Shown piece by piece: positions 21,070-53,147 of a stretch of DNA of 64,000 nucleotides. The notes beneath the pieces were generated by a model, which worked only from the letters and a program-made list of their open reading frames with translations, did not search any database and was not told the origin of the DNA. The stretch is from Candidatus Saccharimonadia bacterium (GTDB taxonomy: Bacteria > Patescibacteriota > Saccharimonadia > UBA4664). The stretch's first letter is position 1, and every line of letters begins with the position of its first letter. Made by a program: the position numbers and the translations under genes. The stretch covers positions 99,483-163,482 of the forward strand of contig DATKIP010000012.1 in assembly GCA_035544015.1 (NCBI GenBank). Direction: 5' to 3'.

Positions 21070-21447
21070 TGGTGGAGCTGCGGGGAATCGCACCCCGGTC
21101 CGTCGGGTTACTCGCTCGCGATCTACAGGCTTAGTTTGCTTACATGTCTTAGCCCTCCACCTGTGAGCAAACCAAACGGTGGCGGGAGCAGCTTCAAAGC
21201 TTAGCTGAGGGGCAGAAGCCCAACCCTCAGAGCGTCCCGATGATTTGATACCGGCGAACCCCTACCGGGAATCAGGTGCCGATAGCTTACGTTATTAGGC
21301 GTAAGCGGGGGCGAATGAAGGAGCCTGGAAGGCAGCCTTCACCCGCGCGAAAAAGTTGGCAGTTAAGCTAACTTGTGGAAGCTAACGTTTGCCTACGACC
21401 TGCGCGCATAGCTTGTAAAAGTCCCAACGTCGAGCCTGATCAGCCCC
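21070..21447 (-). ncRNA. ssrA: tmRNA (SsrA)
   Basis: The minus strand reads 5'-GGGGCTGATCAGGCTCGACG... with tRNA-like ends (T-arm GGGG-TGCGATT-CCCC, acceptor ...GCAGCTCCACCA-3'). Candidate tag ORF GCA AAC GTT AGC TTC CAC AAG TTA GCT TAA (ANVSFHKLA*). Confidence 0.8.
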
Positions 21448-35979: not shown

Positions 35980-36028
35980 AATCTGTTGTCGCTATTGTAC
36001 ACCGCGCGCTAAAAATAATGGCATTGCC

Positions 36029-36373
36029 AGACTAGTCATAAGCCGGATTCTGTCGAGGATGATCATCTATCTTGGGTCCACGTTGCCGCGAACCTCATGC
36101 GGTCTGATCGCTCAAACGCGCGAGCAGCGCCCCTTTCGGGATGTTTGAGCCGCCTTGCAGCGGACGGGGTTTACCTCCTCGCCTAGTCACCTAGGCCAGC
36201 TGTGCGCTCTTGCCGCACTCGTTTCACCCTTACCGAGCTTGCGCCCGGCGGTATCGTTTCTGTGGCACTTTCCCTACGGTCGCCCGCGGTTGCCGTTAGC
36301 AACCGTCCTGCTCTATGCTGTCCGGACTTTCCTCACCGACCTTGCAGCCGGCGCGATCATCTTCTAGTCTGAC
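36029..36373 (-). ncRNA. rnpB: RNase P RNA (bacterial type A)
   Basis: The minus strand carries GAGGAAAGTCCGGAC (P4 5' strand), GGTAAGGGTGAAACGAGTGCGGCAAGAGCGCACAG (P10-12 region) and ACAGAATCCGGCTTATGACTAGTCT (P4 3' strand/P1). Confidence 0.8.
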
Positions 36374-37504: not shown

Positions 37505-37682
37505 AGAGTAAGTCTAGCAGACAAAAAATAATTCCTGGTCAACCATACGCCTCACCTTAGCGAACTATTCCGGCAAATCCTCAAAACGACCATCACCGTT
37601 TGAGTCTCTTCAAACTTGGTTGGCAGAAGCTGGCCTTCAAATTCAAAATTACTGAGTCTTGTCATGCAGCCAGTATAGCAAC

Positions 37683-37705
37683 AAAAGGAGACCGCTTGGG
37701 TCTCC
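37683..37705 (-). terminator. Rho-independent terminator downstream of tRNA-Pro
   Basis: GGAGACC-GCTTG-GGTCTCC hairpin followed on the minus strand by TTTTGTTG. Confidence 0.45.
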
Positions 37706-37723: not shown

Positions 37724-37799
37724 TGGTCGGGGTGACAGGGCTCGAACCTGCGACCTCACGGCCCCCAGCCGTACGCGCTACCAACTGCGCCACACCCCG
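37724..37799 (-). tRNA. tRNA-Pro (GGG), CCA encoded
   Basis: The minus strand CGGGGTGTGGCGCAGTTGGTAGCGCGTACGGCTGGGGGCCGTGAGGTCGCAGGTTCGAGCCCTGTCACCCCGACCA gives a cloverleaf with a CTGGGGG anticodon loop. Confidence 0.85.
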
Positions 37800-37804
37800 A
37801 TAAT

Positions 37805-38041
37805 TTACAATCTCTGGTCGAGCCACTTGCGACCGGCACCCGACTTGAGAAAATGCTCCCTCTTCATGGCTTCGGTTCTGGTTGGCAAAACCTCCGTATA
37901 CTCTACCCTAAAAGGAGCAATCGATCGAGTTGATTTAGTGATGCCGGAATTATGTTGCTCAAAACGGAGCTCAAAATCCTGTGTCTGGCCCGTATATCGG
38001 CGCCCGTTCTTTTCGCTCCGCAACACATATATGGTATACAA
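37805..38041 (-). CDS. small GIY-YIG nuclease-family protein (YhbQ/URI-like)
   Basis: YTIYVLRSEKNGRRYTGQT GIY-YIG motif. Sits 5 nt upstream of tRNA-Pro and 8 nt downstream of the tRNA half-copy. Confidence 0.75.
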   Translation of the reverse strand: MYTIYVLRSEKNGRRYTGQTQDFELRFEQHNSGITKSTRSIAPFRVEYTEVLPTRTEAMKREHFLKSGAGRKWLDQRL

Positions 38042-38049
38042 TCCTAACT

Positions 38050-38103
38050 CCTCACGGCCCCCAGCGTCGCCACGGCGACCGCTACCAACTGCGCCACACC
38101 CCG
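38050..38103 (-). repeat. degenerate copy of the tRNA-Pro 5' half (acceptor, D-arm and anticodon arm; no T-arm)
   Basis: TCGGGGTGTGGCGCAGTTGGTAGCG and GCTGGGGGCCGTGAGG are identical to the intact gene. The intervening CGTACG is replaced by the 14-nt palindrome GTCGCCGTGGCGAC. Confidence 0.6.
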
Positions 38104-38135
38104 ATAACTGTCCGATTATGAGTCAATTCGGCCAC

Positions 38136-38537
38136 TTATGCAACTAACCGCACCAGATGGGGCAAAGCCTTTGCCAATTTCTTATCGTATGTAAGCAATG
38201 GCCCGGTTCCATTCAGTTCCGCATAAACCGCCAGCGCAATGTCGATGAACGACACCGCCTTATGATGAACATATACCGGCATAACTTGGGATATCAGGAG
38301 CCGATTACAGGCAATTTGCTCAATCCTCGTAAGCTCGGTGATGAGATCAGCAATTAACCGCCGATCGAATCCATAGGCCGACCCCTGCAAAATCCACACA
38401 CACTCAAACAACACCACATCCTCAACCGTAAATTCACTCCTGCGGCCCTTCGCTACCATCGCCACCGTTGCCGGCGACTGGGCCGGATGATCCTCGAGCA
38501 ACAGCCGCAACACCAGGTTGGTATCAAGTGCGCTCAC
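38136..38537 (-). CDS. vapC: type II toxin VapC (PIN domain)
   Basis: ALDTNLVLRLL N-terminal motif and FIDIALAVYA. 4-nt overlap with the antitoxin. Confidence 0.8.
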   Translation of the reverse strand: MSALDTNLVLRLLLEDHPAQSPATVAMVAKGRRSEFTVEDVVLFECVWILQGSAYGFDRRLIADLITELTRIEQIACNRLLISQVMPVYVHHKAVSFIDIALAVYAELNGTGPLLTYDKKLAKALPHLVRLVA

Positions 38538-38833
38538 TCCGACTCTCGCATTCGCTCTACTCGATAGGCCGCCGCATCGCGATGAGCCTGTAAACGAACC
38601 TCCCTCAGTTCATCATCGGTCTGCGGGAAGGTTCGGTTGGTGCGCTGCATATGCTCTCGCACGCGAGCGTGGAGCGCCGCCAACTCCTTATGCCAATCCG
38701 GCTGCTCAATCGTAGCGATATCCCCGGACAAATCAAAACTCACCGCCTGTCCCGGCTTGAGCCCCAGCTTACGCCGAATCTCGACCGGAATGGTCACCTG
38801 CCCCTTGCTAGTCATGGTAGACGAATACTTCAT
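38534..38833 (-). CDS. vapB: AbrB/MazE/SpoVT-family antitoxin (VapB)
   Basis: TSKGQVTIPVEIRRKLGLKPGQ swapped-hairpin motif. Confidence 0.8.
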   Translation of the reverse strand: MKYSSTMTSKGQVTIPVEIRRKLGLKPGQAVSFDLSGDIATIEQPDWHKELAALHARVREHMQRTNRTFPQTDDELREVRLQAHRDAAAYRVERMRESE

Positions 38834-39842: not shown

Positions 39843-40948
39843 TAGCCCTCTCAAAACAAAACCGTCATAAACCATATTTAAACAGCCTTCCGGCAATATA
39901 GCCGGTAAAGGCCTTTTTTGTGTCTTCAAAGGTAGAACGCTGAATATTGGCTACAGCTTGCTTGGTGGTGTTCCAAACATGCTCAATTGGATTGTTGTCA
40001 GGGGCATAGGGCGGCATGGGGATGAGGTGGACCCGCTCCAAGAGTTGGCCTTTGGCTAAGGCTGTTCGAATCGCACGACCTTTGTGGAAGGCGGCATTGT
40101 CCCAGATAATGGCAATCTTCTTGTCTGGGTGGTTTTTCAAGAAGAGCTCGAATGCCTTCAACACCTCTTCCTGGTTTTGCCAGGGCATTTCATACACTTC
40201 GCAGGTGAACGATTTCTGGTTCAAGAACCCGATATAGCTCTGAGCCTCTTTGTCCCGGTCGACTTTGACAATGGTGCGCTTGCCCTTTTTGAGCCAAGCC
40301 CGGCGGGTAATAGCTTCTTGTTCTATCCGGACTTCGTCAACGGCAAACACTTCCCACTCCTTGCTGGTAAGCAGCGGGGCAACTTCAGCATGGATTTCTC
40401 GCATCCGGGCCTCAATCGTAGCCACATTGCGCCTGAGGTCAAAGGTATCCGGGTACTTAAACGACAGATTACTAAACCGTAGGAGGAAATGATATGACTG
40501 CGGAGATTCATACACAATCTCAAACTTGGTCTGGAGGTAGGTTTTGAGCTGGGGTACATCCCAGAAGGCCTGAGGCAAGCCAAAGTCGGAGGGTGGAGAG
40601 CTGAGCGCCTGCTTGACCTCTTGGCGCTGGTCGCGGGTTAGAGGACTGGCGTTGTCATTGCCGGCGTGGCCGGTGAATATCATGCTGAGGCGACTAGTTC
40701 GCCAGGCATTGAGCCAGCTCCCCACGGTTCGTGAGGAGCGGTCTTGGATGTCGCCAATGTCAGCGGATGACATCCCTTTATTCGCCATGAGTACGGCCCC
40801 AGCTTTATATCGTATGAGGATGAGTGGGGAGGTTTTGGCATATTCCTTTAAAAGAATCTTTTCTTCGTTGGTGATATTTGTTTTACGCATTTGCAATTAA
40901 GCGTAACAAAATCTCGAAATAAATGCAGGTTTTGTTTTGAGGGGGCTA
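39843..40948 (-). mobile_element. IS630-family (Tc1/mariner-like) insertion sequence, 1106 bp, with a TA target-site duplication
   Basis: 21-bp terminal inverted repeats TAGCCCTCTCAAAACAAAACC (left) and TAGCCCCCTCAAAACAAAACC (right, reverse complement), 20/21 identical. Flanking TA at 39841-42 and 40949-50. One transposase ORF. Confidence 0.85.
39865..40896 (-). CDS. IS630-family DDE transposase (HTH plus DDE_3)
   Basis: IAIIWDNAAFHKG and PPYAPDNNPIEHVW DDE motifs. Full length, 343 aa. Confidence 0.85.
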   Translation of the reverse strand: MQMRKTNITNEEKILLKEYAKTSPLILIRYKAGAVLMANKGMSSADIGDIQDRSSRTVGSWLNAWRTSRLSMIFTGHAGNDNASPLTRDQRQEVKQALSSPPSDFGLPQAFWDVPQLKTYLQTKFEIVYESPQSYHFLLRFSNLSFKYPDTFDLRRNVATIEARMREIHAEVAPLLTSKEWEVFAVDEVRIEQEAITRRAWLKKGKRTIVKVDRDKEAQSYIGFLNQKSFTCEVYEMPWQNQEEVLKAFELFLKNHPDKKIAIIWDNAAFHKGRAIRTALAKGQLLERVHLIPMPPYAPDNNPIEHVWNTTKQAVANIQRSTFEDTKKAFTGYIAGRLFKYGL

Positions 40949-52180: not shown

Positions 52181-52257
52181 TGGTGGATCCTAGAGGACTC
52201 GAACCTCTGACCCCTTCAACGTCAATGAAGTGCTCTAGCCAACTGAGCTAAGGATCC
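52181..52257 (-). tRNA. tRNA-Val (GAC), CCA encoded
   Basis: The minus strand GGATCCTTAGCTCAGTTGGCTAGAGCACTTCATTGACGTTGAAGGGGTCAGAGGTTCGAGTCCTCTAGGATCCACCA gives a canonical cloverleaf. Confidence 0.85.
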
Positions 52258-52391
52258 AAATTGTTACAAGGCCAAACTATACCGCAACCCCGGGCAATCT
52301 TCAAGCCCACCGGGTTGAAAATCCCCCACCAAAAGAGTACACTGCCTCGTGGCCAAAATTTGGCCCCACTACGCGCCCCAGGAGGCCCTTC

Positions 52392-52955
52392 GTGTTGTCC
52401 CCCTCCCCCGTCACCACCACGCCGTGTCGCTACCTCCGGACCCCAGGCCAAGGAGCTCCCGGGCTCAGCTGGTTCGCGACCGGGTCGAGAATCGTCCTGG
52501 CCGACTGGAACGGCTGGCTGCAAGCCGCCGCTGGGCAGCCGCGATTCGGCGTGCAATTGACCGGCATCATCGACCCGAGCGTCGATGAGACCCCGCGGAC
52601 ACTCACGCTCGACGTCAACCGGCAGAGCACCATCAACCCCGGCAGACCCGTAGTCATCAATCTCTACGACGGGGCCAGCTTCTGCACCGGTGGCGCCGGC
52701 GCCACCGTCCGCGAGGCGTTGGTGAGCCTGCTGTACAAGATCGCACCGGGCGAGGCCAACTTCACCCTGACCCGCTGCCAGTTCGCCGTGAGCGTGGCTC
52801 GCGGCTACGGCATCAAGACCGACGGCCTGATGGAACTCGAGCTCCAGGCGGCCGTGGGAGACACGGCCTTGCGGCGCCTGCGAGCTGCCGGCCACAACTA
52901 CCAGCAGCTGCTGGCCAAGCTCACGACCACGCTCGACGACGAGCCCACCGCGTAG
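52392..52955 (+). CDS. hypothetical protein (GTG start with AGGAGG SD 7 nt upstream)
   Basis: Non-repetitive composition and a good RBS. No family recognised. The overlapping minus-strand Gly-rich ORF was rejected. Confidence 0.35.
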   Translation: MLSPSPVTTTPCRYLRTPGQGAPGLSWFATGSRIVLADWNGWLQAAAGQPRFGVQLTGIIDPSVDETPRTLTLDVNRQSTINPGRPVVINLYDGASFCTGGAGATVREALVSLLYKIAPGEANFTLTRCQFAVSVARGYGIKTDGLMELELQAAVGDTALRRLRAAGHNYQQLLAKLTTTLDDEPTA

Positions 52956-52957
52956 CC

Positions 52958-52994
52958 GCCTCCCGGCGGGCGTTCCCAGTGAACGCCCGCCGGG
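52958..52994. other. 16-bp perfect stem hairpin (CTCCCGGCGGGCGTTC-CCAGT-GAACGCCCGCCGGGAG) with no U-tract
   Basis: Read directly from the sequence, immediately after the stop of the 52392..52955 ORF. Confidence 0.4.
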
Positions 52995-53069
52995 AGAGCC
53001 CCAGAGCCTTCCCTCCTCGCCCAAAATCCGCTATTATCACACAAGTTCACCCAAATGCCCCGCCCCTCG

Positions 53070-53147
<78 letters not shown>

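Follow-up and report, generated by a model that had tools for sequence, protein, structure and literature searches.

In fungal mitochondria, mobile open reading frames (mORFs) encoding an endonuclease (LAGLIDADG, or GIY-YIG in the case of atp9) insert in host genes, among them atp6 of Allomyces and atp6, atp9, cox2, and nad3 of Glomus, bringing with them a replacement gene end that is sometimes foreign, while the native end persists as an unexpressed remnant (PMC3630166). The subject of this study is a 64,000-nucleotide (nt) stretch of Candidatus Saccharimonadia bacterium (assembly GCA_035544015.1, contig DATKIP010000012.1, positions 99,483 to 163,482; below, the window), in which a small GIY-YIG nuclease gene stands between an intact tRNA-Pro(GGG) gene and a half copy of the same tRNA interrupted by a GC-rich palindrome. 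Its likeness to an mORF lies in the endonuclease open reading frame (ORF) within a host gene, the duplicated gene end that keeps that gene working, and the native remnant. Related ORFs at other tRNA genes occur in two arrangements, class I (5' remnant, ORF, intact tRNA), to which the window belongs, and class II (intact tRNA, ORF, 3' remnant). Class II is the direct equivalent of an mORF and class I its mirror image, and four loci (L005, L064, L070, and L087) show a foreign intact copy beside a native remnant. Unlike mORFs, the window has a bacterial chromosomal tRNA as host gene, a protein reduced to a bare catalytic domain of 78 amino acids (aa), a remnant interrupted by a palindrome, and, as in the rest of its class, a duplicated 5' rather than 3' end.

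Other described systems share individual features with this locus. One report (PMC2330249) describes T4 segB as a free-standing GIY-YIG gene among the T4 tRNA genes, whose product cuts DNA lacking the gene and promotes inheritance of the gene and its flanks. The Seg family of T4-like phages thus resembles our locus in having an intron-free GIY-YIG gene among tRNA genes. Seg proteins are far longer than 78 aa and have DNA-binding domains. In contrast to the arrangement described here, Seg genes neither split nor duplicate their target, have no palindromes, and spread in phage coinfections. The UPF0213/YhbQ/Slx1 branch of the GIY-YIG proteins provides the best matches among solved structures and has the same single-domain size. 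Slx1 is a structure-specific nuclease acting on branched DNA, a property that would suit an extruded palindrome; we know of no reported tRNA linkage, remnants, or palindromes for YhbQ or Slx1.

The palindromes recall the Rickettsia palindromic elements, the repetitive extragenic palindromic (REP) sequences and bacterial interspersed mosaic elements with their RAYT transposases, and the ends of IS200/IS605, all of which are short hairpin repeats that insert cleanly without target duplication and sometimes in frame. A fixed base before the insertion, here T, resembles the target choice of IS200/IS605. Hairpin and double-hairpin elements of fungal or sponge mitochondria are likewise short hairpin-forming repeats, and one account (PMC2800124) mentions double-hairpin units in mitochondria. 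The palindromes at our loci differ from these repeats in being accompanied by a GIY-YIG nuclease instead of an HUH (Y1) transposase, in their unit length of 15 or 30 nt, and in clustering at tRNA remnants by the nuclease gene. Integrase-driven islands and prophages enter a tRNA gene, restore it by means of a carried partial copy, and leave a tRNA fragment as a direct repeat. Such elements depend on a tyrosine or serine recombinase, most often duplicate the tRNA's 3' part, and span kilobases; our locus has no recombinase, a duplicated 5' part, and an insertion of about 300 nt.

Our search of the literature found no account of tRNA-nested small GIY-YIG genes with palindromes, most subscription journals lying outside that search, so that an earlier description is possible; a survey of Patescibacteria tRNA introns published in 2026 makes no mention of the architecture. 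The family of miniature selfish elements at tRNA genes proposed below is apparently undescribed.

Results

Insertion in the tRNA-Pro(GGG) transcription unit

Comparison with related lineages shows that a GIY-YIG gene has been inserted into the tRNA-Pro(GGG) transcription unit and that one working tRNA has been kept. The parts of this unit, all on the minus strand, are given in the direction of transcription with the coordinates of the window:

38115..38143, minus strand: putative native tRNA promoter, read from the sequence (-35 TTGCAT at 38143..38138, 17-nt spacer, -10 CATAAT at 38120..38115)
38080..38107, minus strand: 5' remnant part A, a TTAT flank (4 nt) and tRNA-Pro positions 1-24 (acceptor 5' strand and D-arm up to G24)
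38066..38079, minus strand: GC-rich palindrome GTCGCCGTGGCGAC, GTCGCC-GT-GGCGAC, in place of tRNA positions 25-30 (CGTACG)
38050..38065, minus strand: 5' remnant part B', tRNA positions 31-46 (G31, anticodon loop, 3' strand of the anticodon stem, start of the variable loop)
38053..38048, minus strand: Shine-Dalgarno site GAGGAG, read from the sequence, with 6 nt between it and the TTG start; the last bases of part B' contribute to it
37805..38041, minus strand: GIY-YIG nuclease gene, TTG start, 78 aa and stop codon, catalytic domain only
37803..37800, minus strand: second TTAT flank
37799..37724, minus strand: intact tRNA-Pro(GGG) with encoded CCA (ARAGORN; Rfam tRNA, 60.9 bits)
37680..37705, minus strand: intrinsic-terminator-like hairpin GGAGACC-CAAGC-GGTCTCC followed by TTTTGTTG, read from the sequence, closing the transcription unit

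The half copy thus covers positions -4 to +46 of tRNA-Pro(GGG), with positions 25-30 exchanged for a 14-nt palindrome. Its first part (38107..38080) is identical to 37803..37776 at 28/28 positions (blastn E=4e-9 against the 64-kb window), and its second (38065..38050) to 37769..37754 at 16/16. The exchanged CGTACG, which the original prediction took for a short connector, consists of C25, the last base of the D-stem, G26, and four of the five bases of the anticodon-stem 5' strand; because these bases are replaced, the half copy cannot form an anticodon stem or fold like a tRNA. Part B' runs into AGTTAGGA, within which GAGGAG is the Shine-Dalgarno site. The features have the coordinates that the original prediction gave them, and the ORF, as described there, starts 8 nt past the half copy and ends 5 nt (an A, then TTAT) ahead of the tRNA. 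Seven bases separate the -10 hexamer from the remnant, and bases of the -35 hexamer also belong to the stop codon of the PIN-toxin gene upstream. A consensus scan did not pick up this promoter in the window, its score being too weak, and the terminator-like hairpin at 37680..37705 is missing from the list that the scan produced.

The architecture is not an assembly artefact. A Logan assembly of run SRR8863102 (L102) contains the half copy in a stretch identical to the locus at 681/681 nt, an agreement that may or may not rest on independent reads. A different organism (L001) has the same layout at the syntenic site, with a nuclease 86% identical in protein sequence and a tRNA-Pro(GGG) identical at 76/76 positions. 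The Logan annotation of the identical sequence (L102 1734-2366) leaves the GIY-YIG ORF uncalled.

Empty sites were reached through homologues of the upstream dUTPase (78-79% identical), which led to eight related Saccharimonadia contigs (L094-L101). In six of them (L096-L101) an uninterrupted tRNA-Pro(GGG) stands 47 nt past the dUTPase gene, and neither a GIY-YIG gene nor a palindrome of the family is present; in all eight the tRNA is identical to that of the window at 76/76 positions. Ahead of its intact tRNA, L094 reads TTGCAT-N17-CATAAT-tttacag-TTAC-CGGGG, and ahead of its half copy the window reads TTGCAT-N17-CATAAT-cggacag-TTAT-CGGGG. Since the same promoter fronts the intact tRNA in L094, we infer that the half copy is the resident 5' part, still behind its native promoter, and that the downstream copy would be the one that the element supplies.

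Relative to the empty site the window has gained 304 nt, of which 246 are unique (8 + 237 + 1); the remainder is the 50-nt duplicate of -4 to +46 with 6 nt exchanged for the 14-nt palindrome. This supports the original prediction that a minimal insertion, about 250 bp long, had targeted the tRNA and duplicated its 5' half. The GIY-YIG ORF is the sole gene content of the gain, which holds no tyrosine or serine recombinase gene. The site is polymorphic for presence and absence, filled in the window, L001, and L102 and empty in L094-L101, a comparison between related lineages (dUTPase 78% identical) and not within one population. A metagenome pattern search for an empty site with the window's own promoter flank gave 0 matches.

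Between the dUTPase gene and the tRNA promoter, the window carries a separately inserted toxin-antitoxin pair (38136-38833, minus strand). Its antitoxin is of the MazE/AbrB type, and its PIN-like toxin has 133 aa and no Pfam match. The empty-site relatives do not have the pair, and in L094 a MOSC gene takes its place. Because PIN-toxin homologues led to unrelated contexts, the pair is itself mobile. An exact-sequence look-up of the GIY-YIG protein and of the 100% identical PIN protein returned no match.

A predicted catalytic-domain-only nuclease

The 78-aa product matches Pfam PF01541 over residues 1-67 with 59.2 bits against a cut-off of 22.6 (E=5e-16). Five residues, Y5, Y16, R26, H30, and E62, are invariant in an alignment of nine sequences; we take them to be the catalytic residues by comparison with I-TevI and UvrC. 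The closest solved structures are the UPF0213 proteins BH0048 (1zg2, E=7e-12) and EF2693 (1ywl, E=3e-9), followed by Slx1 (6seh, E=7e-6), and the NCBIfam model grpIintron_endo for group I intron endonucleases is matched weakly, with 22 bits against a cut-off of 56. The predicted nuclease is therefore of the UPF0213/Slx1-like type and related to structure-specific nucleases. Beyond PF01541 there is no DNA-binding domain in the protein and hence no module for specificity toward a long target.

Between the window and L001 the nuclease gene has a pN of 0.085 and a pS of 0.69, with synonymous sites near saturation. As judged from this substitution pattern, the ORF is shown to be an intact gene under strong purifying selection. 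Many members of the family are annotated with 20-35 additional residues at the N terminus, which may be an over-extension, possibly one that reads back through the palindrome and the tRNA remnant.

Recurrence at tRNA genes

A profile search recovered 22,051 cluster representatives at E<=1e-3 and 5,960 at E<=1e-10. A word-indexed homologue search gave only 8 relatives, and a scan of the genome collection supplied enough loci for comparison; in all, about 90 loci from genome and metagenome collections, with 96 homologous ORFs, were read. The family spans bacteria of the candidate phyla radiation, Acidobacteriota, Chloroflexota, Planctomycetota, Verrucomicrobiota, Ignavibacteriota, and Bacteroidota. 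A tRNA gene on the same strand adjoins 74 of the 96 ORFs, at a distance of 0-30 nt, and about 20 anticodon types are represented, so that the arrangement of the window recurs at many tRNA loci.

Class I comprises 49 ORFs, mostly from candidate-phyla-radiation bacteria. A palindrome lies upstream in 43 of these and a cognate tRNA fragment in 39, and both are present in 36; at 11 loci an additional palindrome-bearing 3' remnant lies past the tRNA. Class II, with 25 ORFs from Acidobacteriota, Chloroflexota, Planctomycetota, Verrucomicrobiota, and Ignavibacteriota, has both fragment and palindrome in 20, and 7 of its loci have an additional 5' remnant. The partial duplication that the original prediction regarded as unusual is, then, the rule in this family, in its mirror class as well.

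Promoter-like sites were found upstream of 38% of 5' remnants, 14% of intact tRNAs, and 6% of random positions. ORF lineages follow the identity of their tRNA: for 36 of 74 ORFs the nearest neighbor had the same one, where permutation predicted 9, a signal to which host phylogeny may contribute. Five Acidobacteria loci share one tRNA-Arg(ACG) arrangement. Derivatives include a locus without an ORF (L085) and tandem or nested arrays (L038 and L074). In viral contigs there were 3 matches among 2.9 million, so that carriage by phages is unlikely.

Several loci are more intricate. In L074 2908-3810 a tRNA-Arg is followed by a unit of tRNA-Ser 5' remnant, double palindrome, and ORF that is present twice in tandem, then by an intact tRNA-Ser, one complete 3' remnant, and a final unit that stops at the palindrome and passes straight into unrelated DNA, a boundary that simple nesting or tandem duplication does not fully explain. 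L012 2300-3310 is an array of repeats of about 200 nt, each with a palindrome-bearing copy resembling tRNA-Asn (one was labelled tRNA-Ile(TAT) by ARAGORN), followed by one intact tRNA-Asn, another remnant, an ORF, and a further remnant. In L058 3250-3650 a tRNA-Asn(GTT) located between two GIY-YIG genes of the family is split in its anticodon loop by an insert of about 300 nt resembling a group I intron.

The palindrome

The palindrome of the window, a 6+6 inverted repeat around a 2-nt center, occurs once in the 64 kb, at the tRNA-Pro locus. The survey revealed it to be the conserved hallmark of the family and not a local oddity, a status that the original prediction overlooked. The usual form is TCCGCC-N3-GGCGGA (15 nt), often accompanied by CCAGCC-TNN-GGCTGG in a clean 30-nt insertion. 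The Pro(GGG) clade, including the window, has GTCGCC-N2-3-GGCGAC, always at tRNA positions 24/31 (L001, L005, L006, L007, L085, and L087), and Bacteroidota have a 20-nt form, CCTGCC...GGCAGG. This last, CCTGCCTGCCGGCAGGCAGG, was found in the same role inside tRNA remnants at L078 2962-2981, L082 2966-2985, L010 3295-3314, and L092 240-370, which are Bacteroidota-type loci and one viral contig.

Remnants of either class carry the palindrome close to their inner end, where only 5-24 nt of tRNA sequence separate it from the ORF side. Where GCC-N3-GGC cores lie within 200 nt of ORF ends, all three flanking pairs are complementary in 170 of 195 cases, compared with 29 of 200 elsewhere, and about half of all cores fall in these zones, which make up about 8% of the DNA (458 kb). 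From the window to L001 the palindrome stems are conserved at 12/12 positions and the loop is changed, despite near-saturated synonymous sites. Thirteen stem variants retain their symmetry; single stem mismatches are strand-symmetric (8 C:A and 5 T:G or G:T); and the loops of palindrome pairs are purine-rich and then pyrimidine-rich, a pattern invariant under reverse complementation. Together, the symmetric variants, strand-symmetric mismatches, and dyad symmetry of the loops favor a role in duplex or cruciform DNA over one as an RNA hairpin, and so point to a function at the DNA level.

Double palindromes enter cleanly after a T, without target duplication. A 537-aa DnaG-primase-like ORF of L070 contains at 1248-1277 an in-frame double palindrome of 30 nt, CCCGCCAGAGGCGGG TCCGCCTTCGGCGGA, which adds PARGGSAFGG; the palindrome unit can therefore, it would seem, move by itself. 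In all sampled loci the gene associated with palindromes is the GIY-YIG gene; no other conserved ORF was found between the remnants there, and no HUH (Y1) transposase was tied to the hairpins. Palindromes of the same type also occur in REP-like repeats away from tRNA or nuclease genes (L009 1061-1141 and 3431-3445; L053 930-1020).

Three simple accounts of the palindrome were set aside. It is not a terminator, since in the loci read tRNA sequence resumes right after it, with no T-run. Derivation from the anticodon stem, at which the tRNA-Asn of L012 hinted, is contradicted by the same palindrome in company with tRNA-Arg and other tRNAs whose stems are unrelated. A simple target-site duplication centered on the palindrome fits L006, L014, L041, and L052 (about 40 bp of overlap) and fails for L028, where two remnants bear palindromes at different tRNA positions.

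Remnant and intact tRNA

Among 5' remnants 24 of 31 are identical to the neighboring tRNA, and among 3' remnants 14 of 31. The two copies of the window match at every position compared (24/24 and 16/16), which leaves their origins indistinguishable by this comparison. Remnant and intact tRNA differ at L005 (36/46 identical), L087 (33/46), L064 (54/66), and L070 (30/43), and the remnant of L005 carries the window's own tRNA allele. The presence at these four loci of an intact tRNA unlike the remnant suggests that the element can bring in a tRNA copy of foreign origin. From the window to L001 the whole remnant has diverged by only about 12%, far less than synonymous sites, and is therefore either constrained or held tRNA-like by gene conversion. 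The acceptor part of the L001 remnant is decayed and the ORF there is intact.

Surroundings in the window

An IS630/Tc1-like transposase ORF, with DDE_3 and helix-turn-helix domains in its 343 aa, occupies 39865-40896 on the minus strand, about 550 nt beyond the dUTPase gene. Three other RNA features of the window were noted. A tmRNA (tag ANFFARVKAAFQAPSFAPAYA) is encoded at 21070-21447, a class A RNase P RNA at 36023-36372, some 1.3 kb downstream of the tRNA-Pro locus, and two divergent tRNA-Val genes (GAC and CAC) are located at 52181-53147. No GIY-YIG gene or palindrome of the family lies near the tmRNA, the RNase P RNA, or the tRNA-Val pair.

Discussion

Our findings are best accommodated by a model in which the locus is probably a miniature selfish DNA element residing inside a tRNA transcription unit and resembling the mobile ORFs of mitochondria. 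The element would consist of a GIY-YIG nuclease of the UPF0213/Slx1 type, reduced to its catalytic domain, and a conserved GC-rich palindrome serving as a cis-acting DNA site. Its insertion duplicated positions -4 to +46 of the target and left the resident 5' part, disabled by the palindrome, behind the native promoter; the nuclease gene comes next, and a complete tRNA-Pro(GGG) is rebuilt directly downstream, so that the host keeps its tRNA. The enrichment of promoter-like sites upstream of remnants and the short distance between ORF and tRNA suggest co-transcription, in which remnant, ORF, and tRNA would share one transcript driven by the strong tRNA promoter; the nuclease would be translated from a Shine-Dalgarno site partly made of tRNA sequence, and RNase P would free the tRNA.

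Such an element may spread by a homing or mobile-ORF route, in which the nuclease breaks or nicks tRNA genes or the extruded palindrome and host recombination copies the element, with the tRNA-derived segments flanking the palindrome acting as homology arms. We favor, as a conjecture, the extruded palindrome or a structure of the tRNA gene as the substrate. The palindrome may mark or immunize the remnant, and it would interrupt a direct repeat that could otherwise delete the element.

Several observations weigh against this model. The case for mobility comes from comparative states only. The intact tRNA usually keeps the sequence of the palindrome site, as the identity of most 5' remnants attests, so that a nuclease aimed there would attack the host's own copy. 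This 78-aa protein differs from known site-specific GIY-YIG homing enzymes in having no separate DNA-binding domain. The palindrome lies inside the remnant and not at a clean element boundary, its position varies between tRNAs, and no single mechanism yet fits all loci. The rarity of the family in viral contigs leaves no transfer vehicle evident. Finally, the insertion is shared by descent between the window and L001, and its ORF is conserved like the neighboring host genes; conservation where synonymous sites are nearly saturated fits host-level or addictive selection better than homing followed by decay.

This last point leads to the rival explanation that fares best, although we consider it unlikely: an element that inserted as described and whose nuclease has since become host-selected and immobile. 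Palindromes, R-loops, or stalled forks at highly transcribed tRNA genes could be what it cuts, in a structure-specific manner; alternatively it could serve as an addiction module. Remnant and palindrome would be kept as its expression leader or operator. UPF0213/YhbQ proteins are ordinary chromosomal genes in many bacteria, and domestication would fit the purifying selection on a vertically inherited, syntenic insertion with a shared dUTPase-MazE-PIN context in the window and L001, the conservation of palindrome stems and of the remnant's D-arm segment far past the synonymous rate, and the common arrangement of the five Acidobacteria loci. It accords poorly with close relatives that have no such gene at an identical tRNA, with loci whose ORF is missing or whose remnant has decayed (L085, L001, and L005), with foreign tRNA alleles beside native remnants, and with tandem and nested copies, and the roughly 20 tRNA targets argue for repeated invasion and not for one domestication.

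It is more doubtful still that two separate parasites are involved, the 15- and 30-nt palindromes being an independent miniature mobile repeat, like REP sequences or the Rickettsia palindromic elements, that piles up in neutral DNA such as dead tRNA fragments, and the GIY-YIG gene a functionally unlinked hitchhiker on tRNA promoters. Far from any nuclease ORF, the in-frame pair of L070 agrees with such independence, as do solitary palindromes and REP-like clusters in L009, L053, L061, and L030 and the variable positions and numbers of palindromes (from 1 to 4 or more per remnant). Against it stand the concentration of palindrome cores close to nuclease ORFs and the constant placement of palindromes at the inner end of remnants, a placement that random accumulation would not produce. 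The type of palindrome also follows the clade of the ORF, GTCGCC with Pro(GGG) and the 20-nt CCTGCC...GGCAGG in Bacteroidota, and the window's palindrome is restricted to the tRNA-Pro locus.

A functional tRNA-like RNA leader, the processing or structural signal that the original prediction offered as its alternative, here extended to a decoy or a regulatory or guide element for nuclease mRNA or protein targeting, is very improbable: the half copy does lie in the 5' untranslated region just behind the promoter and contributes to the Shine-Dalgarno site, most remnants match the neighboring tRNA, and the paired loops are purine-rich and then pyrimidine-rich, but the leader folds no better than shuffled sequences (z = 0.32 as RNA, 0.44 as DNA), only intact tRNAs match Rfam at the gathering threshold (window and 16 loci) or at E<=10 (two leader regions), stem mismatches show no sense-strand wobble-pair bias, the loop pattern reflects DNA dyad symmetry and not strandedness, the ORF is intact where the acceptor part is decayed (L001) or the remnant absent (L005 and L087), class II has the equivalent remnants downstream of its ORFs and 11 class I loci have them downstream of the tRNA, and a protein-coding gene contains one of the palindrome pairs. 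A "COG2827 RNA motif" could not be tied to the locus.

If the selfish-element model is extended to the family as a whole, a broader claim becomes possible, which we advance tentatively. Bare Slx1-like GIY-YIG nucleases with 15- or 30-nt palindromes in tRNA-derived homology segments might form a new class of prokaryotic mobile elements having autonomous units (ORF and palindromes) and nonautonomous ones (the 30-nt double hairpin). These would home into tRNA genes of about 20 anticodon types in many phyla, splitting the target while rebuilding a working copy, and the hairpin might also move alone, even in frame in protein genes. The tRNA fragments beside the palindromes would then be a targeting device, operating through DNA homology or conceivably through the transcript.

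If confirmed, elements of about 300 nt would be among the smallest protein-coding mobile elements in bacteria and a bacterial chromosomal counterpart of the mitochondrial mobile ORFs. They would account for the small genes annotated as "GIY-YIG family protein" beside tRNAs and for many partial or odd tRNA calls. A predicted nuclease of 78 aa and a defined palindrome of 14-15 nt would make a simple system for the study of structure-specific or palindrome-directed DNA cleavage, and the tolerance of a 30-nt insertion in a protein-coding gene is interesting in itself. For the genomes that harbor them, these elements may be a possible route by which tRNA alleles pass from one genome to another.

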